IMG/VR virus record: IMGVR_UViG_2911215477_000001
Coordinates: 1-38,485 of that record
Length of the DNA: 38,485 nucleotides
Reading direction: 5' to 3' (one strand)
Origin: a virus
Taxonomy: Duplodnaviria; Heunggongvirae; Uroviricota; Caudoviricetes
The notes below the pieces were generated by a model. That model had not been told where the DNA came from, made no database searches, and saw only the letters and a program-made list of their open reading frames with translations. Every line of letters begins with the position of its first letter. The stretch's first letter is position 1. A program made the translations under genes and the position numbers. Positions 17,473-38,351 of the stretch are shown here, piece after piece.

Positions 17473-17499
17473 TCGATCATCCTTGATCTATGGAGGTAT

Positions 17500-17519
17500 G
17501 TATGTGCCTACATAGTATA
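17500..17519 (-). promoter_or_regulatory. Operator-like palindrome 6 overlapping -10 TATACT (tail-fibre promoter)
   Basis: GTATGT-gcct-ACATAG at 17500-17515, preceded by GTAT. Minus-strand TATACT overlaps the site by 2 nt. Confidence 0.75.
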
Positions 17520-17523
17520 GCAA

Positions 17524-20500
17524 TCAACGAAGACCAAAGATGTAGCCCTGCACGAGGTTCACATGGAAGTTGCCATCACGGTTGCCGCCCGAGGTGGTGT
17601 GGACTCGGTAGGCTCGCGACCCGTTGATCATGTCGTCCGGGATCAGGAACGTGTTGACCGCACTGTTGCGGGAGCCCAGGTAGATGTTCACCTGGCGCAT
17701 GGGCACCCACGAGCTGCCCACCAGCTTCTCAATCGTCACCGTGCCGTTACAGGGGTCACTGCCGCTGTTGTACGAGTTCACTTCCATCATCACGACCGGA
17801 CGGTGCCATTCACCCGAACGAACCGGGTTGTCCAGCCAGAAGGCGTCAGTCGCACCACCGGACGCAGTGATGTCGCCCGACCAGCTGATGATGTTCGACG
17901 CCTGGAACTTGCCCGTGATCGAGCCAGCCGTCAGGTCGCCTCGGATGATGGCGTTGTTGAAGATGGCCGTGCCGTCCTTGCGGATCTGCCAACCATTGTT
18001 GCCGTCGTAGTTCCACGACTGGATCGTGTCACCGATCTTGGCGTTGGTAATCGTTCCGTCACGGATATAGGCGGCATCCATCCACACGCCACGGTAGTCA
18101 CCCGAGGTGATCACCTGGAATGGGAAGACGTTGGCGATACCCGGCGCACCCACGAGGAACTGGTCCGCACGGACGATGAACTGCGAAGTCGGGCCTGCAC
18201 CCGGCTTGCTAGTCACACCCAGGCCGAAACCTGCCACGTAGCCATTGACGTCGATACGCAGGCTGTACTGGCTCTGGAAGTCCGAGATCGACAGGCGCTG
18301 TTCGATAGCCTGGCGCACGGTGCCGCCCGCGTTGTAGGTGTCGTAGCTGAGCTGGTTGACCTGGCTCACCAGGTTGCCCGAGCCGGTGAACACGATGGAT
18401 TCCAGGTTCGTGATCTTGGCCTGAGCCTTGCCAGCTTCAGAGGTCGAGTCCGCGAACATCTGGCGTGCCCACTCCGTCACGAACTTGCCGTTCTGGAGGT
18501 CCGACACAGAGGTCTGGAGCGAACCAAGGTAGCTGGAGTTCGTGATGGTCGCGCCATCCTTGGTGCCCGTCACCTTCAGCGACAGCTGCTCCTGGCTCGT
18601 GATGGTCGCGTAGTTGTCCTTGACGAGCGCCTGGATGGTCTTGTCATAGGCGGCGACCGACGAGGACACCTTCTGACCAATGGTCGAGTCGTCGGTGACA
18701 GCGGAGCCGTCAGCCTTACCCACGATCTTGGCGATGATGTTGTTGCGGGAGGTCGCTTCAGCGCTGTCACCATCCGAGCGCGCCTTCTGCTCGTTCGTGA
18801 TCGCGGTTTCAGCCGCACCCATGCGGGTAGCCAGCTTGCCCACGTCCGACGAGATCGCCCCGTCAGCGTCCACACGAGCCTGCTTCTCGGACGAGATGCC
18901 CGCAGCCAGGTCGTCCGCCATCTTGGCAGCCAGCGTCGTGCGGGCAGTCGCTTCTGCAGAGTCAGCGTCAGCGCGAGCCTTCGACTCGGAAGCGATTCCA
19001 GCCTCAGCCTGCCCCATGCGCACAGCCATCGCGTCCATCGACTTGGCGAAGGCTTCGTCAGCAGCAGCGCGAGCCGTGCGCTCTTCCACGATGCCGGCAG
19101 CGATGTTCTCGTTCAGCTCGGCATAGAACGTGGTGATGCGCTGAGCCAGAGCCTCGTCTTCGCTCTGGCGCACATTCTCTTCCACGCTGATGCGCGTCTG
19201 GTGGTTGTCAGCCAGCGTCAGGAGACGCCAGGTCTCAGCGATGGTATCGACGAAGGTGGTCATATCCACCTTGCCGTTGAGGTCGCTGCCAGCCAGCAGA
19301 TCGAACAGCTGCGGGATCTGGTCGATGTTGGTGCGCAGCTCCTTGTCCAGCATGCCGGCGCTGACCTTCTCGCCGTTCTCCTCCATGATCTGCTGGATGG
19401 AGGTCTGGGCAGTGCCGATCACACCGTCCTTCGGGAACGGGTCGCCCTTGTTGCCAGCCGTGTCCTTCAGGCGGATCCAGTAACGGAACTGCCCTTCCCC
19501 ACGGTTCGTATGGGTGAACGAGAACGCGCTGACGGTATCCGCAAGGGTAGCGTCTGCGAAGCTCTTAGACGGCTCCTGGTCGATTCCGAGCGTGTAGTAG
19601 ATCTCGGTCTGCGCGACTCGCGTGGCGTCGCTCACAGCCCAGCTGAGACGACATGCGAACGGGAGCGTCGTGACATTCAGGTCGAGCGGGGTCACAGCTG
19701 CCGTGATAGCAGCCTTCACCTCGACCGTGACGGTCGGAGCCTTGGAGAACGGCGCACGGTTGCCCACGCGGTCGATAGCGACCACGCGCAGGCTGAAGAC
19801 GTCATCCTTCTCCGCTTCGAACGAATAGATGGTGTAGCCGGCAGTGACCTTGCCCACCGACTTCCACTCGTCGGCGTTCGGGTCCAGGCGGAACAGCTCA
19901 GCACCGTCGTAGTCGCCAGTCTTCGGGCGCTCCCAATGCACGTCCACGTAGAAGCGAGCCTTGATGTCGTCGTAGCTCACGTTCGGGGACGCGACCAGGT
20001 TCTCCACCTGACCGATGTAGAGGGGCACGCCGTCACCAGGCGGCTTGGGCGCGATCAAACCACTGGTGCTGTAGACCTCAGCGTTGTACTCCAGGGCCGT
20101 GATGCTGGCCGTTTCAGCGGTCGGACCACCATTGATGCCCGTCACACGGTAGAGGCGCTTCACAGCCTCCAGCGTGCCGAACAGGAAGTGGGTGCGGATC
20201 GGGGCGGACTGCAGCAGCTGGCTGAAATTGCCGTCCAGGTCCACGTAGTCCTGAACACCAGTCTTGGCGGGAGCCTTGACCGGCAGCTCCACCACTACGT
20301 CACCCGCCACGAGCTGCACGAAGGCGCTCGTGTTGACGTCAGAGGTGGACCAGGGGTCAACCCAAGCCAGTGCGGTGCCGTCGTCCTGCTCTTCCCACTG
20401 GTTGACGCGCATTTCCTTGTAGGACTTGCCGTCAGCACTGCGGACGCGGAGGAACTGGGCCGTCAACGGGCTCACCAGGCCACCCTTGAGCGCCTTGAAG

Positions 20501-22896
20501 CCGGACACGCGGATCCAGCCACCTGCCGGCGAGTAGGAACCCACTGCGCACGCGGAGCTGAACTGGTTCACTTCCCAGCTGGCTGCGAACAGCAGCACGG
20601 TCTGCTTGAGGCCCGCCTGGACAGTCACGTCCTGGTCGAGCAGCAGGTGGTTTGCCGTCGCATCAGCGATCAGGCGACCCGAGGCGACCGTCTTCTGGGC
20701 CAGGTGCTTGACCACGATGACGCTTCCCAGAGCACAGCCCAGAGAGTCGTATGCCGCACTGAACTCCACGGTGCGGGTGATCAGGCGGTTCATGTTGAGC
20801 TGGAGGTTCAGATCCTCCATCGCACGCTGACGGCTGGTGACGCCGATCATGTCGATGGACGCAACCACCTCACGGAACGGGACGCCGGCGATGTCGTCGG
20901 AGATCTTGATCGTGGACTTCTTGAAGTCGTCGTCGCGATCCCAGAAGGTGCCCTCGACTGCGTTCGCGCGGTCGGCAGTGCTGAGCCAGCTGACCTTGAG
21001 GCTGTCCTTCACGATGTTCGCTTCGGAGAACATCATCACGGGCTCATCAGCGCGCTCGATGACGACCGTGTAGCGCGTGCCCGTGCGGATAACCTGCGCA
21101 TGACCGCAGCGGGAGACCAGCTTGAGCGCTTCCCAGATGTTGCTGGCACTGTCGATGACGCCGTTGAACTCCAGGGGAGCCGGTGCCAGCGTGTCGCAGT
21201 AGTGCGCCCAATCCTTGAACGACTCCAGGTCGAGATCGTCAGCGGACACATCTGCGCCCAGGCGGTCGTCCAGGAGCATGTCCAAGCAGACCCACGCCGG
21301 GTTGCTGCTCGCACCGATCATCCACTGCTTCGTCGCACGATCCCAATAACGGATGCGGCGACCCTTGTTCAGGTAGGTGATGTTCGGGAGACCATTCAAC
21401 TGGTCGGACAGCTGCACACGCACAGCCACCAGGGCCGTGTTGTTGTAGGCGACCGATGCCGAGGTGATCTCACCGATGGCCTCGAAGTTCACTGCGTCGA
21501 TGCCCTTGTCATCGGCCAGCTTCGGGTTGGTGCGGCAGACAGCGACCTTGTAGTAGCCAGGCTTGAGCGGAGGCGTGTAGTAGCTGATGCGAGTCGGGTA
21601 GCGCGTGTTGGACGAGAACGTGACCTTGCCGTCCTGCGACTTCTGCGTGTAGACCGGATCCTGGATCACCTGGCCAACGATGTTGCCCTGGCTGTCCAGA
21701 ATGTCATCGCCGTCGATGGTCGAGTTTGCACGGAGCTTCTCGGCAATCTCGGCCTTCAGGGCATTGGAGATCTTCAGCCCAGTGTCGGGGGCAAAGGTCA
21801 GCTTGTCCCAGTAGTAGAACTTGTTCGTGTAGCCGGCGATCTCGTAGGTGCCGATGGTGTATTCCCACGCAGCGCCTGGTGCCGGGCTTCCGTCCGCATT
21901 GACGCGCATGTAGGCGATACGCAGGTCCACATTGGCCCACTGCGTCTTGCCCTTCTTGTCCACCGTCATCAGGCCCGTGGGTGCGGACATGTCGATGCGC
22001 AGACGGTCCACCGTGCCGCTCGTGAAGCGGACAAGGGGGCTCGTGCTCGGGTCGGCGTTGTAGACCGGAACTTCCGGGTTGCCGGTGTCGGTCGCCAGCT
22101 CGTTCGTCGAGAACCAGGGGATTACAGCCTGGTCTTCGTCGCCAAGGCGGATCTCCGTCTGGACGTTCTTGAAGGAATCGAGCGGCTGATCGTTGATGCG
22201 GATGTCTTCGATGCCCGCGACCGGGCCTTCACCCGCGTTCACGAGCATGTAGACGATCTGGGTCTTCTGCTGGTTTTCGGTGTGCAGGCCGATGATGTTG
22301 CCAGCCATGCGGAACTGGCCGTAACAAACGGGGATCGGCATGTCCTCGTTGGACGTGTTCACCGGACCCGACAGGCCATACGTGCTGCTCTCATCCGAGC
22401 CACCACCCAGCTTTGCCGTGGGCAGCGGGATCAGGGCGTTCACGAGCATCGAGCCTGCAATCACGATACCCGCTGCGAACGCGCCTGCGTAAGCACTGGA
22501 GCCCATGATCGTGGTGGACAGGGACGCACCCCAGCCAGCCGAGAAATACGTGATGACAGCCAGCGCAATGATGCGCAGGGCCATCTTGCCACCGTTGCCA
22601 CCGTGCATGACCGGGACGATCACCACGCTGTCGCCAGGGTTCAGCGAATAGCTGTCCCACAGCTCATCAGGCACAGCAGAACCGTTGACGCCCGCAACGA
22701 AGCGGCCATCAGGAATGAAGTCAGCGATTACCGCGCCTTCGCGGAACTCTTCCCAGCGCGCCTCTTTGATCTCAGGGGCGAGAGGGTTCCGAATTTCGAT
22801 GACGCGAATGTGGGTGTCGAACTTGTCAACCGACGAAATCGACGAACCCAGCGATACGGTGTTCCCAATCCCGGAACTTTTCCGAAGCAACTCCAA
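17524..22896 (-). CDS. Tail tip / host-specificity protein (gpJ-like, with fused gpI-like N-terminus)
   Basis: PVCYG, GEGPV, Phage-tail_3-like region, FN3-like repeats, coiled coil, and the DUF1983-like segment YVAGFGL..FIVRADQF..AAYIRDGTITNAKIG. Start uncertain; TTG at 22896 (GGAG 7 nt upstream) chosen. Confidence 0.9.
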   Translation of the reverse strand: MELLRKSSGIGNTVSLGSSISSVDKFDTHIRVIEIRNPLAPEIKEARWEEFREGAVIADFIPDGRFVAGVNGSAVPDELWDSYSLNPGDSVVIVPVMHGGNGGKMALRIIALAVITYFSAGWGASLSTTIMGSSAYAGAFAAGIVIAGSMLVNALIPLPTAKLGGGSDESSTYGLSGPVNTSNEDMPIPVCYGQFRMAGNIIGLHTENQQKTQIVYMLVNAGEGPVAGIEDIRINDQPLDSFKNVQTEIRLGDEDQAVIPWFSTNELATDTGNPEVPVYNADPSTSPLVRFTSGTVDRLRIDMSAPTGLMTVDKKGKTQWANVDLRIAYMRVNADGSPAPGAAWEYTIGTYEIAGYTNKFYYWDKLTFAPDTGLKISNALKAEIAEKLRANSTIDGDDILDSQGNIVGQVIQDPVYTQKSQDGKVTFSSNTRYPTRISYYTPPLKPGYYKVAVCRTNPKLADDKGIDAVNFEAIGEITSASVAYNNTALVAVRVQLSDQLNGLPNITYLNKGRRIRYWDRATKQWMIGASSNPAWVCLDMLLDDRLGADVSADDLDLESFKDWAHYCDTLAPAPLEFNGVIDSASNIWEALKLVSRCGHAQVIRTGTRYTVVIERADEPVMMFSEANIVKDSLKVSWLSTADRANAVEGTFWDRDDDFKKSTIKISDDIAGVPFREVVASIDMIGVTSRQRAMEDLNLQLNMNRLITRTVEFSAAYDSLGCALGSVIVVKHLAQKTVASGRLIADATANHLLLDQDVTVQAGLKQTVLLFAASWEVNQFSSACAVGSYSPAGGWIRVSGFKALKGGLVSPLTAQFLRVRSADGKSYKEMRVNQWEEQDDGTALAWVDPWSTSDVNTSAFVQLVAGDVVVELPVKAPAKTGVQDYVDLDGNFSQLLQSAPIRTHFLFGTLEAVKRLYRVTGINGGPTAETASITALEYNAEVYSTSGLIAPKPPGDGVPLYIGQVENLVASPNVSYDDIKARFYVDVHWERPKTGDYDGAELFRLDPNADEWKSVGKVTAGYTIYSFEAEKDDVFSLRVVAIDRVGNRAPFSKAPTVTVEVKAAITAAVTPLDLNVTTLPFACRLSWAVSDATRVAQTEIYYTLGIDQEPSKSFADATLADTVSAFSFTHTNRGEGQFRYWIRLKDTAGNKGDPFPKDGVIGTAQTSIQQIMEENGEKVSAGMLDKELRTNIDQIPQLFDLLAGSDLNGKVDMTTFVDTIAETWRLLTLADNHQTRISVEENVRQSEDEALAQRITTFYAELNENIAAGIVEERTARAAADEAFAKSMDAMAVRMGQAEAGIASESKARADADSAEATARTTLAAKMADDLAAGISSEKQARVDADGAISSDVGKLATRMGAAETAITNEQKARSDGDSAEATSRNNIIAKIVGKADGSAVTDDSTIGQKVSSSVAAYDKTIQALVKDNYATITSQEQLSLKVTGTKDGATITNSSYLGSLQTSVSDLQNGKFVTEWARQMFADSTSEAGKAQAKITNLESIVFTGSGNLVSQVNQLSYDTYNAGGTVRQAIEQRLSISDFQSQYSLRIDVNGYVAGFGLGVTSKPGAGPTSQFIVRADQFLVGAPGIANVFPFQVITSGDYRGVWMDAAYIRDGTITNAKIGDTIQSWNYDGNNGWQIRKDGTAIFNNAIIRGDLTAGSITGKFQASNIISWSGDITASGGATDAFWLDNPVRSGEWHRPVVMMEVNSYNSGSDPCNGTVTIEKLVGSSWVPMRQVNIYLGSRNSAVNTFLIPDDMINGSRAYRVHTTSGGNRDGNFHVNLVQGYIFGLR

Positions 22897-23200
22897 GGCC
22901 GTTCTCCATTGTGTGTACGAAGCGATCTTCCGTGATCGCAAAACCGACATGACAAACGTATCGGCCCATGCGGAATAGTACAGCAACGTGTGGCTGCCTC
23001 TCCACGGATTTCCACACCGAATCCCGCTGAATCAGCAGGTTCGATTCGTTTAGAAGTCCATTTGTGGAGCTGGTTACGTCCGGGATGATCACGCCCTTGC
23101 GTCGATACATCTCCATCAGCAAACCGTAGCAATCCATTCCGTTGTGGTCCCGCCCACCGTAGGCGAACGGGACGTCCAACAGATCGGCATACGCGATCAT
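22826..23200 (-). CDS. NlpC/P60 peptidase (gpK-like tail assembly protein)
   Basis: GGRD..GMDCYGL (catalytic Cys), HVG and VH. Located between the L-like and J-like genes. Confidence 0.9.
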   Translation of the reverse strand: MIAYADLLDVPFAYGGRDHNGMDCYGLLMEMYRRKGVIIPDVTSSTNGLLNESNLLIQRDSVWKSVERQPHVAVLFRMGRYVCHVGFAITEDRFVHTMENGLGVASEKFRDWEHRIAGFVDFVG

Positions 23201-23877
23201 CGGGTGCCTCGCGGCTTGATGCCTGGGAAGCCTCCGAAGTTGAGGTTGTTGTTATGCGCCTGGCAGCCGTTCGGGCCGACCAGGGTGTAGTCGCAGCTCG
23301 GCATGGTGCCGGCGTAGCGACAATACTTGTCCCTGTACTTGTGACCGCAGAAGTCCTTGCGCTGCTTGCGACGCGGGAACTCCATCGCGAGCATGTTGTT
23401 CGCGCCCAGGGTCCAGGAGATGTTGCGACCGTCCACCGAAGCGCCCGTGACGATGAACTTCTCCGTGGCTTCGAAGTTGGAGCCTTCGCCGTCCAGGATC
23501 ACGTACATCGTCACCAGGAAGCCCACACCACCCTGGAACTGGTCCAGCTGGTCGCGCACGAGTCCGGTGATGTCAGTGATGGTCAGCGTCACAGCCGACA
23601 CGTCGCCCTGGCTTTCCTTCACGGATAGGTCGAACCAGGCGGGCTGGTAATACTCGCCCCGGAAGGTCACGCCACCCGTCTGCAGGATGTCGTCATTGCC
23701 CGAGTCGTCCGACACGAGCTTGGTCGTGTGGACGATGCGGATCACGTCACCGCTCTGCTGCTGGGTGAAGCGGTCAACCGGCGTGACAGCCAGGAGCACC
23801 TGATAGACGCGCTCGCTGTCCAGCTGCGCGTTGTCGATCATCGCGGTTAGCGAGATGGTCTTCCCTACACGCATCAC
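23197..23877 (-). CDS. Minor tail protein, gpL-like (hub with Cys cluster)
   Basis: C-terminal FC..YR..YCRY..SCD..GC..NFGGFPG pattern typical of gpL-family Fe-S ligands, and expected position. Confidence 0.85.
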   Translation of the reverse strand: MMRVGKTISLTAMIDNAQLDSERVYQVLLAVTPVDRFTQQQSGDVIRIVHTTKLVSDDSGNDDILQTGGVTFRGEYYQPAWFDLSVKESQGDVSAVTLTITDITGLVRDQLDQFQGGVGFLVTMYVILDGEGSNFEATEKFIVTGASVDGRNISWTLGANNMLAMEFPRRKQRKDFCGHKYRDKYCRYAGTMPSCDYTLVGPNGCQAHNNNLNFGGFPGIKPRGTR

Positions 23878-24320
23878 ACTTCCTCCAACGTGATGCCCTG
23901 GACATCCCAGCGCAGGTTGGAGCCGAAGCCGACAGGCGTGAACTTCATCTGCTCGCCCGACTTGAAGCGCACGTACATCCGATACGGGGCCTTATCGACC
24001 GTCGCTTTCGGGTTCGTCTTCTGCGCGTTCCAGAGCGCGGCCTCGTACTTGTGCTTGTCGAGATAGATGAAGATCAGGGAACCGCCCCTGACGTCGTTCC
24101 AGAGCGTCTGGAGCGCATCTGCATCACTCGGAGACAAGTCAGTGAACCCCGTCGAGATCGTGCGACGGAGTTGCTTGCGGGCATGGCGAGGACGGCTAGC
24201 AACGTAGCCGCCCTCGAACTCAGTGGACTTACTCGGATCTTCGACCGTCACCGAGTAATACTTCCGGTCCTCGCGCTCGGCAAATGCCGTTACGCGGTCT
24301 TCCCAACGAATCGTGGCCAT
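23874..24320 (-). CDS. Distal tail protein (Dit / gpM-like)
   Basis: 148 aa directly after the tape measure gene. FEGGY..SRPR and terminal LEEV motifs. Confidence 0.75.
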   Translation of the reverse strand: MATIRWEDRVTAFAEREDRKYYSVTVEDPSKSTEFEGGYVASRPRHARKQLRRTISTGFTDLSPSDADALQTLWNDVRGGSLIFIYLDKHKYEAALWNAQKTNPKATVDKAPYRMYVRFKSGEQMKFTPVGFGSNLRWDVQGITLEEV

Positions 24321-24322: not shown

Positions 24323-27300
24323 TTACCTCACTGCGTTCCGCATTCCTTCGCGGAACGAACCTGCGCTGTTCATGGCTTCCAGAACCACGTCGAGCACCAT
24401 CTGTTTACCGTCGAAGCGACGGCTGCTTTCCTTTGCCTGCACCTGCTGGCCGGACTGGTTGATGACGTTCACCTGGACGTTCATCTCGGGCTGGGCGCTT
24501 CCTGCGCTACCGCCCTTCATCGTCACAGGGATCGTCCTGCCATCCGGAAGCGGGACATACGCTTCAGGGAGGCGACCTTCGCCATACAGAGCCAGCTGCG
24601 GCTTGTTGGCGATGCCACCCATCGAATACTTCTTCAGCGGGATCGAACCCTTCGGGCCGAACACGCCACCGTTCGCATGCTTCACGACGCCGCTGTTGGC
24701 ATCGGCTGCGAAGTCGAACGAGTAGCTGCCACCACCGTTGCCCGAACCCTGGACAGCCGTGGTCTTGCCCATCGTCATAAACGACTCAGCGATGCCGGCG
24801 ATTGCCTTCTGAAGCTGGATGCGAGCGATCTGCTTCAGGATGTCCGTCGCGAAGCTCTTGAACTGGAACTTGCCGGTCTCGACGAACGTCAGGGTGGCTT
24901 CCACGCCCGAGTTCATGGCATTGCCCCAGACATCAGCCATGCGCTCAGCCAAGTTCTGCCAGTCGTCCAGCTGTCGCTTCCACGACGCACGGGTGTCGAA
25001 CTCGTAGCGGTCGTTGATCGAGCGGATCGCCTCGTTGGACTTTTCCTCCAGGCGCACGCGCTCATCACCCGTCAGCTGGGTCGCGCTGACGCGCTCACGC
25101 AGGAGACGGATCTCCTCGTCAGCCTCGGCACGCTTGCGAGCGTTCGGGTTGGCGTTCATTGCCGCGCCGTTCTGGTTGATCGTCTTGACCAGATCCAGCT
25201 GCAGCTTGTTGGAGTCGATCTGAGCCTGGACCTGGCGCAAGTTGTCGAACTTGGCAGCCAGCTCGTCGGTCCACTTACCGTTGTTGCGGAGGGTCTGCTC
25301 CAGAACAGCCAGCTGACGATTGAGACCAACAGCGCCGGCAGCCTGACGACCGTAGAGATCGCCCGACAGCTGGTCCTTGCTGGCATCGAGGTCAGAGTTC
25401 AGACGCGCCTGGATGTCGTCGAGCTGGCCCGTAGCCTTCTCAACTTCAGCCAGCGACTTCTTCTGTGCCTTGAGCTTGACCTGGAGGTCTTCCAGCTGAG
25501 CGATGCCGGCTTCCATCTGCTGAACCCAGCCAGCCGTCTCGCCGCGCTTCTTGCCTGCTTCCAGCTCAGCCTTGAACTTGGCCAGCTCACCCTGCCCGCC
25601 CTTCAACTCGTCGGTCAGCTCCGCGATCTTGCCCTTCAGGGTCGCGAGTTCGTCCGCACGAGCGGGGCCGGTCTTCTTTTCCTTCTTGTAGGCGTCGAGC
25701 TTGCCCTGGTAGTCGGCCAGATCGTCGAATGCCTTCGACTGCTCCTGGAACTCCTTGTTGGTCGCCAGCTCGGACAGGAGAACCTTCTTCTCCTTGCCAG
25801 CAGCCTGGGCGAGACCCTCGATCCACTTTTCCTTGCGGTTGAGAGTCTTCTGGCGGGCATCCATGTCCCGCTCTTCCCACTTACGCTGGGCGTCGCTGCG
25901 CTCCTGCTCGACGTTGCCACCTTCCTTGTTGGCCTGGGCGGTTCCGGCAGAACGCAGGTTGAAGGTGTCCTTGAAGGCGTCGCCCAGCCCAAACAGGCCG
26001 CTTGCAGCCTGCTTCAGACCTTCCAGGCCCGACTTCGCACTGTTCGCCTTGTCGTAGATCCCGGACAGGTATTCCTGGATGCCGCCCTTACCCGACCAGG
26101 TGGTGCTCAGCACGAGACCCGAGTTGCGACCGATCTCCTGGTTGAGCTTCTCCAGTTCCGGCGTGAGCTTCTCGACCTTTTCCTTGGCCGCATCGTAGGT
26201 GCCAGTCATCTTGGCCCACTCAGCGCGCAGGCCCTGGAAGCCGTTCATCGCCTCAGCGCCGAGCATGCGGCTCATACCGCCGTACTGGCTCTCCTTGAGG
26301 GACGCCTCACCAGCGTTCCACTTGTTGATCTGCTCCTGGAGATCGGAAACCTCCTTGAGGCGGTCCTGAAGCTCCTTGGTTGCAGACGCACCCTTCTCGG
26401 CAGCGTCATTCACCGACATGCTGGTGGTCGCGCGCTGGAATTCCTTGTTTGCGGCTACCAGCTGCTCGCGCATGTCCTTGATCGACTGAACGGAGCCGGC
26501 GATCTCCTCCTTCATGGCCTTCGCCTTGGAGCGAGCATCCATGAACGCGAAGCCGACCGTGGTGACAGCCGTGATCAAGAGACCGATCGGTCCACCCACC
26601 AGACCCAGCGCGGTCGTGCCGATAGCCTTGATGCCCGTGCCGATCAGCTTGAACGCGCTCGATGCCTTGGCAGCTGCATTTGCAGCGGCGTTGGCAGCCA
26701 GCGAGGTCTCACGATGGTTCAGCTCGATACCCTTGAGGGCTCCTGCAGCCGCTCGGGTGCGAACGATTTCCTTCTCGGTGATCAGCAGCGTGCGAGCGGA
26801 GTTGAGGCGCTGAGCCTCCATCTCCTTCTCGATAGCCCACTGGTCGAGCAGCTTCTGGTTGTTGGCGATGCGACGCAGTGCGTCCTTCTCCGCACGAGCA
26901 GAGCCGGCAGCACGGGCAGCCTGGAGATCCATCTCAGCCTTGAGCTGGTCGCGATTGATCTCCTTGGTGATCCGGCCAATCTTCATCAGCTGGACGCTGG
27001 CCTGGTTGTACTCCTGCTGGATGCCTGCGGTGTTGCCACCGAAGATCGCGGAGAACTTGTCCACGCCTGCGTTCTTGGCCTGCTCGCGGGCGAGCTGCTG
27101 CTTCGCCTGGAGATCAGCCAGAGTCGCCTCAGCGGAGCGACGGTGAGCCGTTGCGATGTCAGCGGTCTGCTTCAACTCGACGGCGTTTGCACGCGCCTGG
27201 TCAGCGTTGTCGCGAGCCTGGCGTGCCTTGTCGATGTAGCTGTTCAGACCACCGGAGTAGTTGCCGTCAGAGCCGCGCTTGCCCACGACCAGGCCCGCAC

Positions 27301-28303: not shown

Positions 28304-28321
28304 TCACATCATCCTTGATGT

Positions 28322-28992: not shown

Positions 28993-29002
28993 TTCTTCAA
29001 TC

Positions 29003-29035
29003 CATGAAGAGAGGCGGGGAGGTTTCCCTCCCCGC
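29003..29035 (-). terminator. Weak intrinsic terminator after the tail tube gene
   Basis: GCGGGGAGG-GAAA-CCTCCCCGC 9-bp stem (29014-29035) followed by CTCTCTT, a poor U-tail. Confidence 0.6.
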
Positions 29036-29043: not shown

Positions 29044-29586
29044 TTACGGCGTCGGGAGATCCGGGCCGATGGTGAACAGCACCTTGGTTGCCGGGTCCGG
29101 GTAGCCGTTGAACACGGCATTGAACACGCGCTCGTCGTCCACCTTGTAGGCGAACTTCAGAGCGCCGGCAGTGGCTGCCAGCGGGATCACCAAGTCTTCC
29201 GACTGGTCGGCGTCGTCCAGGCCGATGGGATGCAGAACCAGCTTCTTGGCCTGGTTCAGGAGGTTGATGCCAGTGCCCACCTGCACGAGCGCCTGCTTCT
29301 TGGCAGTCGGACCCGTGCCCTCGGTCACGACGGTCGTGCCGGGCATGATGAGCTTGAGGTTTTCGACCGTGGTCTCGGCCAGCGGGCACGTCACGGAGAT
29401 CTTGCGACCCATGATGTACTCGGAGATCGGCGTGTTGCCGAACTGGTCCACGTTCACGGCATGGGTGTCCGTGGTGACTTCGACGTCCACACCGCCCTTG
29501 GTATAACCCAGGTCAGTGCCATCCAGAGTCACTTTGCACACGCCAATCTTGACGTTCTGAGTGCTGCTAGTGCTAGGCGTTGCCAT
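29044..29586 (-). CDS. Major tail tube protein
   Basis: NVKIGVCKV..DLGYTKGGV..VDQFG..GRKISVTCPLAE siphovirus tube motif, and expected position. Confidence 0.88.
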   Translation of the reverse strand: MATPSTSSTQNVKIGVCKVTLDGTDLGYTKGGVDVEVTTDTHAVNVDQFGNTPISEYIMGRKISVTCPLAETTVENLKLIMPGTTVVTEGTGPTAKKQALVQVGTGINLLNQAKKLVLHPIGLDDADQSEDLVIPLAATAGALKFAYKVDDERVFNAVFNGYPDPATKVLFTIGPDLPTP

Positions 29587-29640
29587 TTTGCTTCCTTGCC
29601 TCTTCGGTTATCTGCGGCTTCCTGCCCCAGGGCGATACGT

Positions 29641-29665
29641 CTATGTATCTACATACATACTACCA
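29641..29665 (-). promoter_or_regulatory. Operator-like palindrome 7 plus extended -10 (tail-tube promoter)
   Basis: CTATGT-atct-ACATAC-ATAC at 29641-29660. The minus strand reads TG-G-TAGTAT directly before the core. Confidence 0.75.
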
Positions 29666-29680: not shown

Positions 29681-30070
29681 TCAACGGTTGATGGGTGCCC
29701 AGGTAGCCTGCAGGTTGATGAGCATTTCGATCATGTCGCCCGGCGTGTCAGGAAAGGTGATCGGATCGTGGGTCGCACGCATGCGCTTGATCTCCAGCTG
29801 ATCCGGGATGATTCGGCGGTGAATGTCCAGTTCCCGCACGATGGCCTCAGCACGCTTCACGCACGCCGAGTAGTCGGTATCACGCACCACCACCTTGAAG
29901 GGCGTGCGCTTGAGGTCCGGGATGTCGTCGTCACGTTCGGTGCCCATCAGGTCGTCCATGATGAGAACGCCAGTTCGGATCTTCTCCGGCATGTTGTGGA
30001 TGAACAGCGTCTTGGTCGGGATGCCGTGCTTCTTCTCGGTGAGAATCGCGGCTACTGCTTCAAGGATCAT
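29681..30070 (-). CDS. Tail terminator / tail completion protein
   Basis: 129 aa immediately upstream of the tail tube gene, consistent with gpU-like position and size. Confidence 0.7.
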   Translation of the reverse strand: MILEAVAAILTEKKHGIPTKTLFIHNMPEKIRTGVLIMDDLMGTERDDDIPDLKRTPFKVVVRDTDYSACVKRAEAIVRELDIHRRIIPDQLEIKRMRATHDPITFPDTPGDMIEMLINLQATWAPINR

Positions 30071-30525
30071 TTGCGCCTCTTGTTGCTGATCTGGGTGATG
30101 GTGTCTTTGAGCCCGTCCTTCACGCGCTGGGCGATACGGGGTTTCAGCTCTCGATAGGCGCGCTCCAGATACTTCGGACCCACCTTCTTCCCGTTGAGCA
30201 GCGCTTTGGCTAGGCTCAACCGTCCGAGGCGATACTCACCGGCATGCTTCTGGTTCCAGATGAAGCCTTCATGCAGCTGCCAGGCGTACTTCGCTGCCCT
30301 ACCCTGCACGCCGATCTTGTAGGTGAAGCTGGACGAGTTGCTGTCACGACGGGCACGAATGCCCATCTCCAGGTCGCCCTTCTTGAACGGAGCGTAGGAA
30401 CGAGCAAGGGCGCTCATCTCCTGAGCACCCTCTCGCACTGCTTGCTTGGCGGCGTCCGTGCATCGACGGTCCACTTCCCTGAAGGTCGAGACCGTGGATT
30501 GGAGCCCTTTAAGCTTGAGCCCCAT
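30067..30525 (-). CDS. HK97 gp10-like tail/neck component
   Basis: Basic protein with ARSYAPFKKGDLEMGI..KYAWQLHEG..GPKYLERAY pattern. Confidence 0.78.
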   Translation of the reverse strand: MGLKLKGLQSTVSTFREVDRRCTDAAKQAVREGAQEMSALARSYAPFKKGDLEMGIRARRDSNSSSFTYKIGVQGRAAKYAWQLHEGFIWNQKHAGEYRLGRLSLAKALLNGKKVGPKYLERAYRELKPRIAQRVKDGLKDTITQISNKRRK

Positions 30526-32857: not shown

Positions 32858-33766
32858 TTAGACGTTGGTGATGCCCTTCAGGCGAGCCATCGAGCGCGTG
32901 GACTTGAGGGCCAGGCCCACATACCACTTCAGGCGGTAGCGCCAGGCGTCCTTGTTCTGGACGGTGCCGAGAGCTTCCAGGCGGATGCCCGCAGCTTCGC
33001 CACCGTGCAGACCGTGCAGGCCGTCGTCTTCGTTCAGACGCAGCGCGTACACGCTGGTCGTGGCATCGGCGGAACCCTGGGCTTCCGTGCCGATGTAGTC
33101 GTTGACGATGATCGGCATGCCGTTGTGGCACAGCATGGGGCGACCGAAGTTCGGCAGGATCAGCTCGGACGGCGAGGTGCCACCAGCTGCGCGGAGCAGC
33201 GCACGGTATGCGCGGACGGTGCCCGAACGCATCACGAGGCAGTCAGCGCCGTTCGGCACCATGTCCACCAGCTCGTCGAGCATGGAGAGGGTCAGCGCGG
33301 AACCGTTGGCACCCACGACCTGCACCTGGCTCGAACCCAGACCGTTGGAGATCGCGGCGATACCATCGAATTCCTTCGAATGGACCGAGCGGTCGCCGTT
33401 GATGAGGGTCTTCTGGAACTTGGTGCGCAGACCCTTCGCCTTCGCGGCGATCTGCAGGGCCACCTGGTCGTTCACATCGCTCTCGGACGAGGCGAGGAAC
33501 TTGTCGATGTCCACGTCATGCGCCAGGACGCGGAGCGCCGTGGTGACTTCGGTGAACTTCGCAGCACCTTCCGGCACTTCCTCGTTCGGATCCAGGAACT
33601 CGGCTTCGACCACACCGTTCTCACGGTTGTAGACGTAAGCCTTACCATCGGTTCGGGTGAACGGCAGCACGGCGAACAGGTCGTCGCGGTCGATCACCTC
33701 TTCGATCACGCCACGGACGAGATCGTTGTTCGAAAGCTTGTCAGCTTCCACTTTCAGCAACGGCAT
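32858..33766 (-). CDS. Major capsid protein (HK97 fold), 302 aa
   Basis: Follows the scaffold gene, has a strong SD and its own terminator. MPLLKVEADKLSNN..DDLFAVLPF..YVYNRE and RYRLKWY motifs. Confidence 0.92.
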   Translation of the reverse strand: MPLLKVEADKLSNNDLVRGVIEEVIDRDDLFAVLPFTRTDGKAYVYNRENGVVEAEFLDPNEEVPEGAAKFTEVTTALRVLAHDVDIDKFLASSESDVNDQVALQIAAKAKGLRTKFQKTLINGDRSVHSKEFDGIAAISNGLGSSQVQVVGANGSALTLSMLDELVDMVPNGADCLVMRSGTVRAYRALLRAAGGTSPSELILPNFGRPMLCHNGMPIIVNDYIGTEAQGSADATTSVYALRLNEDDGLHGLHGGEAAGIRLEALGTVQNKDAWRYRLKWYVGLALKSTRSMARLKGITNV

Positions 33767-33791
33767 TTAAGACACTCCTTGTCTTGTTTCG

Positions 33792-33811
33792 GTATGTATG
33801 TGGTTACGTAC
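33792..33811 (-). promoter_or_regulatory. Operator-like palindrome 8 (upstream of the capsid gene)
   Basis: GTAT-GTATGT-ggtt-ACGTAC at 33792-33811. The -10 box is weak here. Confidence 0.7.
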
Positions 33812-33859: not shown

Positions 33860-34678
33860 TTAGAAGCCGCTCGACGGGAGCTTGATGGCACCCGCGTTGA
33901 CGGCAGCTCGGATGCGATCACGGCCCGAGCCCACGTCCACATCAGCCTTGGCACCGTCCTGGTTCTTGGAACCGGAGCCGGCGCGCATCTGCGAGCGGAG
34001 CATGTGGTCACGGTCGGGATCGCCATTGACGATCTTCTCCAGCGCCTTTTCGAATTGCAGCGGCGAACCGTTGCCATCGACCAGGACGGAGCGACCAGCG
34101 GCACCGACCGGCTTGTCATAGCCGACGACGTTGCCGTCCTTCACTTCGAAATGTCCGCCGTACACCGTGCGAGCCTTGGCCGGGGTCAGCGTGAGCTGAT
34201 CGCGGACGAAGGACGAGTCACCGAACGAACGGCCAATCGTCAGCTCGATGATCTGGGCACGCGAGGCTTCCAGTTCCGCCGACATCGAGGTGAGCTTCGT
34301 GCTCGTCTCGTTGGTCAGCGCTTCCAGCGCCTTGTTGTGCTCGTCGATCATCTGGGTCTTGACGCTTTCGAACTCACCGCGCTTTTCAGCTTCGGTGCGT
34401 TGGCGTTCGGCTTCCAGGCGGTCGCTTTCTGCCTTGTCCTTGAGCAGCTGCTTCACTGCCTCGGGATCAATGCCTTCGAACTTCTTCTGGTGTTCGGTCA
34501 GGGACTCTTCCAACTCGCGGATGCGGGTCTTCTTGTCCATGACTTCCTTCAGGAGCTTGGCTTCGGCGTCGGACGGGGTGTTCTTGCCACCCTCATTGCC
34601 CGGACCACCTGCGCCCTTGCCCTGATCTTCCTTACCAGCCTCGTCCATCAGGCGGCGATTGCGAAACTTGTTGAACAT
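33860..34678 (-). CDS. Capsid scaffolding protein
   Basis: Charged coiled-coil protein between portal and capsid genes. ATG at 34678 with AAGGA SD. Confidence 0.82.
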   Translation of the reverse strand: MFNKFRNRRLMDEAGKEDQGKGAGGPGNEGGKNTPSDAEAKLLKEVMDKKTRIRELEESLTEHQKKFEGIDPEAVKQLLKDKAESDRLEAERQRTEAEKRGEFESVKTQMIDEHNKALEALTNETSTKLTSMSAELEASRAQIIELTIGRSFGDSSFVRDQLTLTPAKARTVYGGHFEVKDGNVVGYDKPVGAAGRSVLVDGNGSPLQFEKALEKIVNGDPDRDHMLRSQMRAGSGSKNQDGAKADVDVGSGRDRIRAAVNAGAIKLPSSGF

Positions 34679-34700: not shown

Positions 34701-34732
34701 TCACTTGGCAATCTCTTGGCCAGTCACTTGGC
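34701..34732. repeat. Three near-tandem 9-mers TC(A/T)CTTGGC
   Basis: TCACTTGGC 34701-34709, TCTCTTGGC 34712-34720, TCACTTGGC 34724-34732. Confidence 0.7.
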
Positions 34733-34734
34733 CG

Positions 34735-36336
34735 TTAGTTGTTCCCTGGAGTGGGCTTGCCGCCGCTGTTGTCTTTCGACGAGACGGCACCCTGGTTCGA
34801 ATCCTTCGAACCGTCCTGGGCTGGTGTATGTATGTTCATACCTACACCATTAAGCGAAGTGTAGGCACTGTCGTCCCAGGAATCAATAGCCTTCTGCAAT
34901 TCCTGTTTCTTCTCTTCTGCCAGCATCGGCCAGATCTTCTCCACGATGCCGGTCATCAGTGCGCGACGCACCTCGATGGGAGCTGCGAGCAAACTCATGC
35001 CCTGCGCAATCGCCATGTCGTCGGACAGACCGCGCACGTCGAAGCTCGTGCTGTACTTCACCGTGTTGGTTTCGGGATCGAGCAGGCTGGTCTTCTCGCC
35101 GTTCCAGATGCGCACCAGGGTTTCCATGCGGTTGGAGAACTGCTCCATCGCATTGGCCTTGGCCGAGAGCAGCGCGTTCACACGTTCGAAGTCGTATGCC
35201 TTTGCTACGCCCGAGCTGTTGTCGATGCCGACCGAGTTGTCCTGCTTGGTGCGCTCACCGGCAAGACCGACCGTGTGGTAGATCTCGTTGATGATCTGGC
35301 GGATCGCCGTGATGATCAGGGATGCTTGGCGCGGATCGGGGCTGATGTAGGTGGGGGCTGCGCCGTGCTCACCGTCGAACAGAAGCACCTGGGAAGTGCC
35401 CATCTTCATCAGGTTGCGCTTGGCTTCGTCCTCTTCCTTCGCACTGTCTTCCGGCGACAGACCCACGCCCGGCAGCACACCCTGAGCCGGCATGACGAGC
35501 TGGCTGAAGGTCTGGTCGTTGATGATCTGGTCCAGGCACGACAGGTAGTTCGCGGTGCCACGGTCCATGTAGGCGATGTCTTCGATCAGCCCAGGGTTGT
35601 GGTAGCGAGCGTCCGACTCGACGTGATCGGCCTTGATGACCGGCACGACGCCCAGGTTGTGATCGCCCTTATCGACGAACTCGATCTTGTCCCTGACGGT
35701 CTGCTTGAAGACGAACCACTGGGTCTTGGTCCACAGGCGGAAGCGGGACAGCACGCGGCCCGAGCCCGAGAACGGGTTGTCGTCGTCGCGGTAGACCTCT
35801 TCGATCAGGATCCACTCCAGCTGGCCGAAGTCGTCGTAGCCCATGTCCAGGACATGCTTGGGGGTGACGATGTACGAGTAGAGGCGCACCGCACCATTCT
35901 TCTCGTCGGCAATCGACGCGATCTCGGAGTTGCTGCGCTTGTTGTTGTCCACCACGACCCAGACGCGACCATAGATCGACGTCTTGCGGGCGACCTCGCG
36001 TTCGAACTGGGACAGCGTGAGGCCCGTCAGGGTGGCTCGCTCGCGGAAACGCAGCACCTGGTCGGGGACGTCCGGCTTACGCACGGGTGCCACCTTGAAC
36101 AGATACTTGTTCACCAGGTCCACTACCTCGCGGGTGTGGTTGAAGCGGTAGGCGCGCTCCACACGCTTGGCGTAGGTCGTGTCACCCTCTCGCGTGAAGC
36201 GGAAGATGTTCTTCTTGAACCAGGACCGCTCGCTCTTGTAGGTCTCTTCCAAGAACTCCCAGTGTTCCAGCTTCTCCCGGTAGTCCGGGTGACGGCGCTG
36301 GGTGAGCGCCGCCATTTCCTTTGGCTTGTAAGTCAT
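34735..36336 (-). CDS. Portal protein (SPP1 gp6-like), 533 aa
   Basis: Follows terL. HNLGVVPVI, IAYMDR..NYLS and SGVAKAYDF motifs. Confidence 0.9.
   Translation of the reverse strand: MTYKPKEMAALTQRRHPDYREKLEHWEFLEETYKSERSWFKKNIFRFTREGDTTYAKRVERAYRFNHTREVVDLVNKYLFKVAPVRKPDVPDQVLRFRERATLTGLTLSQFEREVARKTSIYGRVWVVVDNNKRSNSEIASIADEKNGAVRLYSYIVTPKHVLDMGYDDFGQLEWILIEEVYRDDDNPFSGSGRVLSRFRLWTKTQWFVFKQTVRDKIEFVDKGDHNLGVVPVIKADHVESDARYHNPGLIEDIAYMDRGTANYLSCLDQIINDQTFSQLVMPAQGVLPGVGLSPEDSAKEEDEAKRNLMKMGTSQVLLFDGEHGAAPTYISPDPRQASLIITAIRQIINEIYHTVGLAGERTKQDNSVGIDNSSGVAKAYDFERVNALLSAKANAMEQFSNRMETLVRIWNGEKTSLLDPETNTVKYSTSFDVRGLSDDMAIAQGMSLLAAPIEVRRALMTGIVEKIWPMLAEEKKQELQKAIDSWDDSAYTSLNGVGMNIHTPAQDGSKDSNQGAVSSKDNSGGKPTPGNN
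34826..34845 (-). promoter_or_regulatory. Operator-like palindrome 9, embedded in the portal 3' coding sequence
   Basis: GTAT-GTATGT-tcat-ACCTAC at 34826-34845, an AT-rich patch within the portal tail. Confidence 0.65.
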
Positions 36337-36354
36337 CAGACGTCCTTGTCTAGT

Positions 36355-36374
36355 GTATGTATATGGTTACATAC
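36355..36374 (-). promoter_or_regulatory. Operator-like palindrome 10 (upstream of portal)
   Basis: GTAT-GTATAT-ggtt-ACATAC at 36355-36374, in the 46-nt terL-portal gap. Confidence 0.7.
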
Positions 36375-36382
36375 ATCTTTGG

Positions 36383-37633
36383 TCAAAAGCTAACACCCAG
36401 GACCGGCGTCTTGCGGGTCGGGAAGTTGTACTCGATGGCGTAGCCGATACCGTCCGCGATGTGCTCCTTGTTGAGCGACTTGTCGATCTCGGTCGTGCCC
36501 TCGCGATACGTCACCTGTTCGAAGGCTTCGATGGTCGCCCTGCACTTCTCGTTGACCTTCAGTCGCACCTGGTTGCTGGCACTGCGGAGCAAGGCGTTCA
36601 CCGAGTTCACGCGGTCCTGCACGAACGGATGCTTCTTGTGATACATGATCCGCTTGAAGCCTCGGCTGCGGAAAATGTCCAGGGCCGATTCACCACGGGC
36701 ATGCGAGCGCGAACCACCTGCCGGGTCAGGGAAGATGGTGATCTGGCTCATGTTGCGCCAGTAGCGCTTCTCCAGCTCGTCGCAGACCTCGGTCACGTTG
36801 GAGTTGAAGAGCACGATCTCATCGACCACCCACAGCTCGCCGTTCGGCTGAGGCTGAAGCACAGCAGCCGACATCGGGGAGATGTTGAAGTCCTGCCCGA
36901 TCCAGATCGGCAGCTTCGGGTTGAATGGGTAGTTGCCCACATGCCGGCTGCGTTCGAACGGGTAGTAGACGCGGCCCGACATGGTTTCGAAGCTCGCCTC
37001 GTACTCCTGACGGAACGTGCGCGGATCCAGGTCGCTGCGTGCCTGCTCGATCTCTCGCATGGGCACGAACGGGGACGCGATGGTCGGGAACTGCCAGCTC
37101 GCCCACTCGGGGTTCTTGCGGTTGCGCTGACGGACGCCCTTGGCGTAGTTCTCGTACAGAAGGTTGTGGGACTTGGGCGTGCCGATGAAGAGCGCCCTGC
37201 CCTCCGTCGTCGCCAGGGTCGGACGGAGCACCTGCTCCCAGACCTCGGTGCGCATATCCTGGTATTCGTCGAGCACCACGAAGTTCAGACCCACACCGCG
37301 CAGGGTGTCAGGTCGGTCGGCACCCTTCAGGGAGATCAGCGCGCCGTTGACCAGGCGCAACTGCAGGAGCGTTTCGTTGTACTTGTCCACCCAATCCGGA
37401 GGCGTGGTCGCCTTCAGATCGTTCCACATGATCTCTCGGGCCATGCCGTAGGTCGGGGCCACATACCAGATCTTGTCGCCGGGATTGGCACGCGCACCTT
37501 CGCGACGAAGCTCGGACAGTGCGAGCGTCGTCTTGCCAAAGCGTCGGCCTGCAACCAGGGTGCGGAAACGCGCAGGATTGCGATACACCTCCATCTGGGC
37601 ACGATGGAGGCGCGTGCGTGCTACCTCGCTCAT
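36383..37633 (-). CDS. terL: Terminase large subunit
   Basis: Walker A AGRRFGKT, Walker B FVVLDEYQD, nuclease GQDFN and HIADGIGY. Confidence 0.95.
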   Translation of the reverse strand: MSEVARTRLHRAQMEVYRNPARFRTLVAGRRFGKTTLALSELRREGARANPGDKIWYVAPTYGMAREIMWNDLKATTPPDWVDKYNETLLQLRLVNGALISLKGADRPDTLRGVGLNFVVLDEYQDMRTEVWEQVLRPTLATTEGRALFIGTPKSHNLLYENYAKGVRQRNRKNPEWASWQFPTIASPFVPMREIEQARSDLDPRTFRQEYEASFETMSGRVYYPFERSRHVGNYPFNPKLPIWIGQDFNISPMSAAVLQPQPNGELWVVDEIVLFNSNVTEVCDELEKRYWRNMSQITIFPDPAGGSRSHARGESALDIFRSRGFKRIMYHKKHPFVQDRVNSVNALLRSASNQVRLKVNEKCRATIEAFEQVTYREGTTEIDKSLNKEHIADGIGYAIEYNFPTRKTPVLGVSF

Positions 37634-38277
37634 TCTGCTTCCTCTTCCTCGGACTCCGTGTCCGGTTCCGGGAAGGACTCAGCTGCGGCTTCGATCTCTT
37701 CGATGGTGGGCGCGGGTGCCTCTTCGTCGGTTTCCTCACCGAACGAGGACGTGCGGTTGCGGAGCGCTGCCTCTTCCTCGGCAGTCATCTCTTCCACGAC
37801 GATCTTGGTCTTCTCGCCCGTGCCGGCGTCCGGGTTGATCTCCAACAGGCAATACAGCTCTTCGCGGGCGAGCTTCAGTGAAGCGACCGATTCGCGCAGG
37901 GCTTTGGCAGTTGCCTGGAGGGACGCAAGCGAATGGCCACCCTCACGGATGACCTTGAACTCGCGACCGAAGGCTTGCAGGAGGTTGAGCTGGATGCCGG
38001 CGAGCTGTTCCTTCGCGTAGATCGAACGGAATGCCATCTTCTCGGCGTATTCGCGCTCCATCGCAGCGATCTTCGCCAGGTTCTCTTCACGAACCTTGTC
38101 CAGCTTCTCGCCGCCCTTGATCTTGGCAGCGGTCATGTGTCGGGAGACGGTTTCGATGCGGATGCCGAACTTTTCAGCCACCTCTTTCTGGGTGTGGCCG
38201 TTGGCATACATCTCTTCGGCCTTCGCCCACTCCTTCGGAGTCAGACGGCGACCGGCGCTTGCAGCTTTTGCACTCAT
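37630..38277 (-). CDS. terS: Terminase small subunit
   Basis: N-terminal HTH (TQKEVAEKFGIRIETVSRH), coiled-coil middle and acidic tail. Overlaps the terL ATG. Confidence 0.85.
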   Translation of the reverse strand: MSAKAASAGRRLTPKEWAKAEEMYANGHTQKEVAEKFGIRIETVSRHMTAAKIKGGEKLDKVREENLAKIAAMEREYAEKMAFRSIYAKEQLAGIQLNLLQAFGREFKVIREGGHSLASLQATAKALRESVASLKLAREELYCLLEINPDAGTGEKTKIVVEEMTAEEEAALRNRTSSFGEETDEEAPAPTIEEIEAAAESFPEPDTESEEEEAE

Positions 38278-38282
38278 TACAA

Positions 38283-38351
38283 CTCCATCCTTGGAGATAT
38301 GAAGACGGGATCTACAGCGCGTCCCATCCTTGGGGGCTGTAGATCCCGTCT
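38283..38351 (-). promoter_or_regulatory. Structured terS leader: two CAAGGATG-loop hairpins, one capping a perfect 16-bp stem
   Basis: AGACGGGATCTACAGC (38303-38318) / GCTGTAGATCCCGTCT (38336-38351) with inner CCCA-AGGA-TGGG. CTCCA-AGGA-TGGAG (38283-38296) covers the SD. Confidence 0.75.

Follow-up and report, generated by a model that had tools for sequence, protein, structure and literature searches.

Most independently translated virion genes of an SSU5-like prophage present their ribosome-binding site in a CsrA-like hairpin loop, suggesting host Csr gating of particle production

Why would a prophage place the Shine-Dalgarno (SD) sequences of its virion genes in the loops of small hairpins? 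The question is raised by IMG/VR virus record IMGVR_UViG_2911215477_000001 (Caudoviricetes), whose whole 38,485-nucleotide stretch is the window analysed here. This window corresponds to bases 64774-103258 of a 4.99-Mb chromosome of 64.7% G+C, labelled Dyella and presumably that of the soil bacterium of this name, and it makes up the left third of a ~104-kb region of low G+C (59-60%). The capsid protein shares 45-66% identity with its counterparts in Xanthomonas phage JGB6, Stenotrophomonas phage ANB28, Pseudomonas phage nickie, Rhizobium RHEph10-like phages and Salmonella phage SSU5, and we therefore regard the element as an integrated member of the SSU5/nickie supergroup. A tyrosine integrase gene (1-1323, +) lies at the edge of the low-G+C block, at the start of the ~104-kb region, which argues that this SSU5-type element is integrated in the chromosome and not kept as a plasmid.

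In this prophage, independently initiated virion genes, those for terS, portal, capsid, tail chaperone, tape measure protein (TMP), a minor tail protein and a fibre, carry the GGA of their SD in the loop of a weak hairpin, with the start codon 6-10 nt after the GGA in each case. The GGA is unpaired in all seven of these SD hairpins; together with at least five hairpins further upstream, they hold it in loops of 3-8 nt, and many late sites fit the pattern CA-N-GGA-N-G. Six of the SD hairpins (terS, portal, capsid, chaperone, TMP and fibre) were recovered in local minimum-free-energy (MFE) folds, and these six are weak when folded alone (-2.7 to -4.9 kcal/mol). Several virion genes have, in addition, a second, stronger GGA-loop hairpin 21-50 nt upstream. 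At the level of sequence, the ribosome-binding site (RBS) of most virion genes that are translated independently lies in a CsrA-like hairpin loop, and this suggests that the host Csr system gates particle production. The specific proposal that the hairpins are CsrA/RsmA-type binding modules for translational control of the prophage late module has, in our estimation, an even chance of being correct.

A sequence-only reading of the stretch had listed nine such hairpins, and all nine strings are found on the minus strand letter for letter. Eight are real hairpins; the ninth, in the leader of the tube gene (29616-29626, 3-bp stem, AGGAA loop, -2.5 kcal/mol), is at chance, with 38 of 200 shuffles as stable. 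The same reading had proposed comparing structural with other RBSs against shuffled controls. We called genes with our own codon-bias caller, whose choice of start is blind to hairpins (144 genes in the element and its flanks, 3859 host genes outside the element), assigned the virion module by PHROG and Pfam matches, and counted perfect Watson-Crick stems around a 3-8 nt loop containing GGA between positions -35 and +6; the null kept the GGA in place and shuffled the rest 1000 times. Among the 20 virion genes, 11 have a stem of at least 4 bp, 8 of at least 5 bp and 4 of at least 6 bp, where the null gives 1.7, 0.39 and 0.09, and none of the 1000 shuffles equalled these counts. By contrast, the 118 other prophage genes are at chance (6, 2 and 2 against 9.1, 2.2 and 0.5), and the corresponding frequencies among host genes are 5.4%, 1.3% and 0.34%. 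The earlier remark that the replication genes have none also holds.

A thermodynamic (MFE) criterion, in which the fold of positions -40 to +15 places the SD GGA in a loop of at most 8 nt closed by at least 5 bp, selects 7 of 20 virion genes, 1 of 104 genes in the rest of the prophage (Fisher 7e-6) and 45 of 3859 host genes (Fisher 3e-9). Over the whole window, the sense strand has 25 GGA-loop hairpins of at least 5 bp and the opposite strand 10, against a Markov-1 null of 11.5 +/- 3.2. High G+C was rejected as the cause, as the host (64.7%) and a relative of 62% G+C lack the pattern. Duplication of one cassette was likewise rejected: the stems differ, and a 12-mer is common only to the TMP and fibre hairpins.

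Does the sequence around the GGA also resemble that of known CsrA sites? CsrA binds short stem-loops whose loop holds a GGA (PMC7366521, PMC4347634), for which a consensus, RUACARGGAUGU, is available from systematic evolution of ligands by exponential enrichment (SELEX) (PMC4347634), along with an RsmE-derived 10-mer, (A/U)CANGGANG(U/A) (PMC6849547). Scores of at least 8/12 against the SELEX consensus were reached by 13 of 28 late-region RBSs, compared with 6 of 110 other phage RBSs and 191 of 3859 host RBSs (4.9%). The 10-mer occurs at 4 of 28 late RBSs, 0 of 110 other phage RBSs and 8 of 3859 host RBSs (0.2%; p = 1e-6). A C precedes AAGGA in 12/12 late SDs versus 165/342 (48%) in the host, and the second base after GGA is a G in 9/13 late sites versus 35/165 (21%) in the host (p = 2e-4 to 3e-4 for these flank statistics). 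Longer SD pairing was rejected as the source of this C: the 16S gene reads CCTCCTT and then T, so that the 16S tail would demand an A there, and the conserved C is thus not due to anti-SD pairing. Three hairpins deviate from the consensus in having a loop one base longer. The core 9-mer of the capsid SD is identical to CsrA binding site 2 (BS2), on the SD of ColE7 cel, where electrophoretic mobility-shift assays and an AC-to-TT change that relieves CsrA repression proved CsrA dependence (PMC2896534).

The virion sites thus combine a short hairpin whose loop exposes a GGA, the extended consensus flanking that GGA, and an overlap with the SD or start by which binding would compete with the 30S subunit. 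A CsrA-family protein is also at hand in the cell, as the host has a single csrA gene, at 870 kb, whose product scores 91.9 bits against PF02599 and begins with the canonical N-terminal sequence; its first 50 residues are almost the same as those of enterobacterial CsrA. Among phage genomes, ~1% carry csrA genes (PMC7366521). Six-frame searches with Pfam PF02599 and phrog_9500 found no CsrA homologue in the prophage. Of the earlier proposal that RsmA of the host or a phage homologue gates virion-gene translation, the sequence and structure code and the host protein are therefore supported, and the phage homologue, for which a search of the contig had been suggested, is not.

The virion module lies on the minus strand, as do all the hairpins described here, and its genes are given in order of transcription. 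The gene for the terS-like helix-turn-helix protein (37630-38277; PHROG 867, DNA-binding) has an SD hairpin at 38283-38296 (5-bp stem, AGGA loop, core CAAGGAUG, -4.6 kcal/mol) that ends 10 nt before the ATG at 38277. Its leader (fold z = -5.3) also contains a long hairpin at 38305-38349 (-29.9 kcal/mol, z -6.35, 0/200 shuffles as stable), in which a second AGGA loop tops a long, near-continuous stem of ~18 pairs; this apex (38323-38334, 4-bp stem) has its GGA 39 nt from that of the SD hairpin and, being ~50 nt upstream of the terS ATG, is not an SD. For terL (36383-37633; PHROG/Pfam), a non-SD hairpin at 37650-37664 (5-bp stem, ACGGA loop, -6.1 kcal/mol) falls within the 3' coding end of terS, 21 nt before the terL ATG at 37633. 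The portal gene (34735-36336; PHROG 145) has its SD hairpin at 36337-36352 (5-bp stem, AAGGAC loop), with a full match to the 10-mer and 10/12 against the SELEX consensus. The hairpin of the scaffold leader (34794-34812; 7-8 bp stem, GGA in the loop, -8.6 kcal/mol, 1/200 shuffles as stable) lies in the 3' coding end of the portal gene, 14 nt after a promoter/operator half-site and ~120 nt before the ATG at 34678 of the scaffold gene (33860-34678; PHROG/Pfam). The SD hairpin of the major capsid gene (32858-33766; PHROG 212) spans 33769-33785 (6-bp stem, AGGAG loop).

Farther along the module, the gene for the Ig-domain tube protein (29044-29586; PHROG/Pfam) is immediately followed by a G+C-rich hairpin at 29014-29035 (GGAAAC loop, where the fold closes one more pair; -20.4 kcal/mol, z -5.2), whose GGA, 32 nt before the chaperone ATG, makes it a candidate upstream site. 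The chaperone gene itself (28624-28992; PHROG 893, the alignment beginning at residue 1) has its SD hairpin at 28994-29010 (6-bp stem, UGGAU loop, -4.9 kcal/mol). At the TMP gene (24323-28303; PHROG/Pfam), the SD hairpin at 28306-28321 (6-bp stem, AGGA loop, -4.1 kcal/mol, 0/200 shuffles as stable) ends 8 nt before the GTG at 28303 and its SD matches the 10-mer in full. A hairpin in the TMP 3' coding end (24334-24357; 8-bp stem, loop GAAGGAAU, -13 kcal/mol, z -4.3) places its GGA 23 nt before the ATG at 24320. At the minor tail protein region (22826-23874; PHROG 18, minor tail protein), the RBS hairpin at 23871-23896 has a 10-bp stem including G-U pairs and a GGAGGA loop (-10.1 kcal/mol), and the start codon lies within its 3' arm. 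Two genes for 1790-aa tail proteins (17524-22896 and 12100-17472; PHROG/Pfam) follow. Upstream of the first is a hairpin at 22922-22939 (6-bp stem, ACGGAA loop, -7.8 kcal/mol, z -4.05), with its GGA 32 nt before the called TTG start at 22896, a start that is uncertain; the second, a tail/fibre gene, has its SD hairpin at 17475-17488 (5-bp stem, AGGA loop, -2.7 kcal/mol), ending 7 nt before the ATG at 17472 and with a full 10-mer match at the SD. The hairpins at 23871-23896, 37650-37664, 29014-29035, 24334-24357 and 22922-22939 are additional to the nine first listed. A hairpin at gene 30067-30417 (GGAGA loop abutting the called ATG) was left uncounted, the start being doubtful. Within the block at 6.9-11.5 kb, several SDs are of the CAAGGAA type, including that of a small gene (10794-11030), which matches the 10-mer consensus at 11037-11046 (-) without a stem.

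A separate feature of five SD hairpins (38277-38334, 33766-33785, 28992-29010, 28303-28321 and 17472-17488, all -) is that the A of GGA, read together with the UG (or GUG) at the beginning of the 3' arm, forms a start-like codon. These codons open frames of 2-3 codons that end on, beside or 4 nt before the true start (AUGA and UAAUG overlaps); in the terS leader, the upstream hairpin contributes a further AUG in frame with these, giving a 16-codon frame that ends on the same stop. The start-like codons may be a by-product of the CA..UG closing pair.

In CsrA-glgC and RsmE-hcnA, an upstream hairpin site and an SD site are bridged by one dimer (PMC4347634, PMC2896534, PMC6849547). GGA-loop hairpins with the GGA 21-32 nt upstream occur at 5 of 20 virion genes, 4 of 118 other phage genes (3.4%) and 118 of 3858 host genes (3.1%), an excess at virion genes with p = 0.003 against the rest of the phage and 3e-4 against the host. 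Extra A-N-GGA motifs between -70 and +35 number 1.0 per late gene, 0.45 per other phage gene and 0.25 per host gene. One CsrA dimer can bridge sites roughly 10-60 nt apart, and pairs at such spacing are present at terS (39 nt, between its two AGGA loops), terL, the chaperone gene and the 23874-24320 gene. In the capsid leader, A-N-GGA occurs only once.

Many of the hairpins adjoin a short repeated motif. ATACATAC occurs 10 times in the window, where 0.07 copies are expected, and 28 times in the genome, 19 of them in the 104-kb element. The copies in the window lie at 3335-3342 (+), 6152-6171 (both strands), 10754-10761 (-), 17496-17503 (-), 29653-29660 (+), 33792-33799 (-), 34826-34833 (-), 36355-36362 (-) and 38426-38433 (-). 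A -10-like hexamer stands 9-11 nt upstream of the copies, each of which is half of a GTATGT-N-ACATAC palindrome, and the motif is probably a dispersed promoter/operator. The copies at 38426-38433, 36355-36362, 34826-34833, 33792-33799 and 17496-17503 each lie 3-14 nt before a hairpin, the half-site at 36355-36362 (-) presumably setting the short leader of the portal mRNA.

If the hairpins are CsrA sites, a CsrA dimer would bridge the upstream loop to the SD loop or bind the SD loop alone, and CsrA on the SD loop would block 30S binding, as at glgC, hcnA and ColE7 cel. In the lysogen, leaky late transcripts would stay untranslated under this block; upon induction, a flood of late mRNA or a fall in free CsrA would lift it, which would make virion and tail synthesis threshold-dependent and sensitive to Csr status. 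Repression is the predicted sign of the effect because the site overlaps the SD, although CsrA may instead activate by protecting the mRNA. A bolder version, which we consider rather unlikely, is that late transcripts of SSU5-type temperate phages and host CsrA form a shared titration switch. Here about a dozen consensus sites per genome would silence leaky late mRNA in lysogens and plasmid carriers, and the induced burst of multi-site late RNA, including the four-motif terS leader, perhaps as a stable RNA, would outnumber CsrA and switch virion synthesis on in an all-or-none manner. The phage RNA would double as a sponge for CsrA, reprogramming host metabolism at a late stage of infection, and the device would be common to the SSU5-group phage-plasmids, having arisen or been kept independently in this prophage.

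How does this arrangement compare with known systems? CsrA-glgC of E. coli and RsmE-hcnA of Pseudomonas share with the prophage the loop GGA over the SD, the consensus and the layout of upstream plus SD site; their targets, however, are host metabolic or secondary-metabolite genes, whereas the predicted sites here (~7 SD, ~6 upstream) cover a whole virion module, in a host where no decoy small RNA was identified. At ColE7 cel, host CsrA restrains the late lethal function of a mobile element, and the same may hold for the prophage; one cel site sits in a stem-loop after the preceding gene and one on the SD, a layout that recurs at the tube-to-chaperone junction here (PMC2896534). That system, however, is a single gene with experimental proof, while the prophage presents many phage genes, a host of a different order and inference from sequence only. 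Deletion of rsmA from Serratia sp. ATCC 39006 leaves its prophage with higher RNA and protein levels, more excision and more particles released (PMC4046660), so that a host Csr/Rsm system can gate a prophage; that prophage is podovirus-like and unrelated, with no sites or mechanism defined and an effect that is possibly indirect (PMC4046660). In the literature that we searched, no paper describes CsrA sites on the virion genes of a phage; the cel site of ColE7 and the prophage phenotype of the Serratia rsmA mutant come closest.

Two further classes of RBS element invite comparison. T4 RegA and the MS2 coat-protein hairpin are cases in which small RNA elements at the RBSs of phage genes are read by one protein to time translation; those readers are phage-encoded, whereas no such homologue was found here and the motif fits a host regulator. 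ROSE and fourU RNA thermometers also control initiation through an RBS hairpin, but they pair the SD in the stem, as attenuators do, while the GGA of all seven SD hairpins of the prophage is in the loop. If CsrA does read these hairpins, translation of phage structural and tail genes would be under the direct control of a host protein that regulates carbon and stationary-phase physiology globally, adding a layer to phage late control, which is usually described as transcriptional. Such a lock might account for the way in which phage-plasmids of 100 kb, with their many internal late promoters, escape toxic leakage.

Is the pattern found in other phages? A search for close relatives with the portal protein matched nothing in the genome_contigs or viral_contigs collections, and a family-level genome search returned one distant match at 37% identity. 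In SSU5 (54% capsid identity), stems of at least 4 bp occur at 12 of 28 late genes against a null of 3.0 and at 0 of 18 non-late genes, and stems of at least 5 bp at 5 late genes against 0.8; the 10-mer (A/U)CANGGANG(U/A) is present at 3 of 28 late and 0 of 18 non-late RBSs, and at 0 of 24 in lambda. Cyrano, a phage-plasmid of E. coli LF82 (PMC9928086), has stems of at least 4 bp at 10 of 24 late genes against a null of 2.1. A general property of siphovirus late genes was rejected, since the hairpin count at lambda late genes is at chance. The closing pair of the capsid hairpin differs on both sides between SSU5 and Cyrano, giving one compensatory pair. SSU5 also has a non-SD AGGA hairpin in its terS leader, and two letters of this loop differ in Cyrano, with A-N-GGA kept. 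The tube-to-chaperone junction carries two GGA-loop hairpins in SSU5, Cyrano and this prophage, and capsid SD-loop hairpins with unrelated stems are found in nickie, hairong, the SSU5 group and one metagenomic relative. Because some lineages have the pattern at many late genes and others lack it altogether, it looks like a regulon and not like gene-by-gene tuning. Since SSU5 and Cyrano have it, the csrA tools already available for Salmonella LT2 or E. coli could be used to test it.

Two individual hairpins in these phages are of note in their own right. The minor tail M gene of SSU5 (15215-15240) and Cyrano (15160-15185) has a 7-bp hairpin whose loop and closing pairs are the SELEX core ACA-A-GGA-UGU, immediately after a G+C-rich terminator-like hairpin. 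Rhizobium phage RHph_Y2_11 (~28040-28070) has a 6-bp hairpin with a GAAGGA loop on the SD of its tail-chaperone gene, with the same UCA..UGA closing as in this prophage.

Several observations weigh against CsrA as the reader. Relatives at 62-72% capsid identity (ANB28, JGB6, which is borderline, and four metagenomic contigs) are at chance, and the hosts of ANB28 and JGB6, Stenotrophomonas and Xanthomonas, are expected to have CsrA/RsmA. Rhizobium is not known to have CsrA, and a Rhizobium phage nonetheless carries the similar chaperone hairpin. A strong AAGGA SD, open to any highly expressed late gene, supplies part of the consensus score. No Csr/Rsm decoy small RNA was found in the host: a search for RsmZ (RF00166) gave nothing above the cut-off, and our own host scan for dense GGA-hairpin clusters returned rRNA and coding regions only. 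An Rfam scan of the window at gathering thresholds matched no family. Finally, it is hard to see what repressing the most abundant virion proteins would gain, unless the system works as a threshold or as a safety lock in the lysogen, a logic that is itself inferred.

The chief rival explanation, which we hold to be possible but clearly the less probable, is that the hairpins act in cis, protein-free, by holding the SD in a local loop on long, G+C-rich polycistronic late mRNAs, where they would keep initiation free of influence from upstream sequence, adjust its rate and/or shield the short 5' leaders that begin at the internal promoters from 5'-end-dependent decay. Such a role fits the placement of the hairpins, 3-14 nt beyond ATACATAC, at genes with an internal promoter or an intergenic gap in front of them, with overlapping, coupled genes mostly lacking them, and it fits the weakness of the SD stems, which need not block initiation; the recurrence of capsid SD loops on unrelated stems likewise argues for selection on structure only. 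It leaves unexplained, however, the conserved C and G around A-GGA-N, for which the 16S tail offers no pairing, the non-SD GGA-loop hairpins farther upstream, the A-N-GGA kept in the non-SD terS-leader loop of SSU5 and Cyrano, and the non-use of the device by 104-118 other prophage genes and by host genes of similar or higher G+C. Moreover, a 4-nt loop presumably cannot pair with the anti-SD unless the stem opens.

CsrA is not the only protein that might read such sites: a phage-encoded RNA-binding factor, either an unrecognised protein or a phage Hfq-like one, could use the hairpins as translational operators in the style of T4 RegA or MS2 coat protein, though we regard this as improbable. 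The distribution over lineages, with many late genes in this prophage and the SSU5 group and none in ANB28-like phages, would suit a regulon tied to a factor that the lineage carries, and the prophage does encode an Hfq-family protein of 103 aa (5825-6136, -; Pfam Hfq 34 bits, cut-off 27), the sole recognisable RNA-binding gene in it. A tblastn search of 50,697 phage records returned no match to this protein, and SSU5 and Cyrano have the hairpins nonetheless. Hfq binds A-R-N and U-rich single strands, and we know of no case in which it reads GGA hairpin loops. Searches of the element with PF01818, PF10122, PF04352 and PF10715 found no RegA, ProQ/FinO, Com or RegB, nor was a CsrA homologue found, and the known reader of the motif is already present in the host. 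That the inverted repeats are DNA-level operators, or chance or compositional by-products of A/C-rich leaders and AAG-GAN codons, seems very improbable to us. CAAGGA does occur 56 times on the sense strand and twice on the other, largely in NNC-AAG-GAN codons, and the hairpins adjoin the dispersed promoter/operator motif; the arm sequences, however, all differ, leaving no common DNA-binding site, the features in common are the loop GGA and the pairing, the SD hairpins are mostly intergenic, and the shuffle, host, other-strand and same-phage controls all reject chance.

Other RBSs of the prophage are built differently. At the lysozyme gene (9504-10394) and gene 11594-12100, just downstream of the fibre gene (-), the SD is buried in a stable stem of ~10 bp, the opposite layout to the loop-presented SDs; these are the only two genes within the window with an SD buried in a stem. 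Non-late genes that follow a promoter (2717-3283, 5825-6136 and many at 103-168 kb of the genome) have a purine-rich, GAGAGAAGAGA-like leader abutting the start codon, and AGAAGAG is found at 4 of 104 non-late phage RBSs versus 3 of 3859 host RBSs. The purine-rich leader at non-late genes indicates that the phage has two RBS styles.

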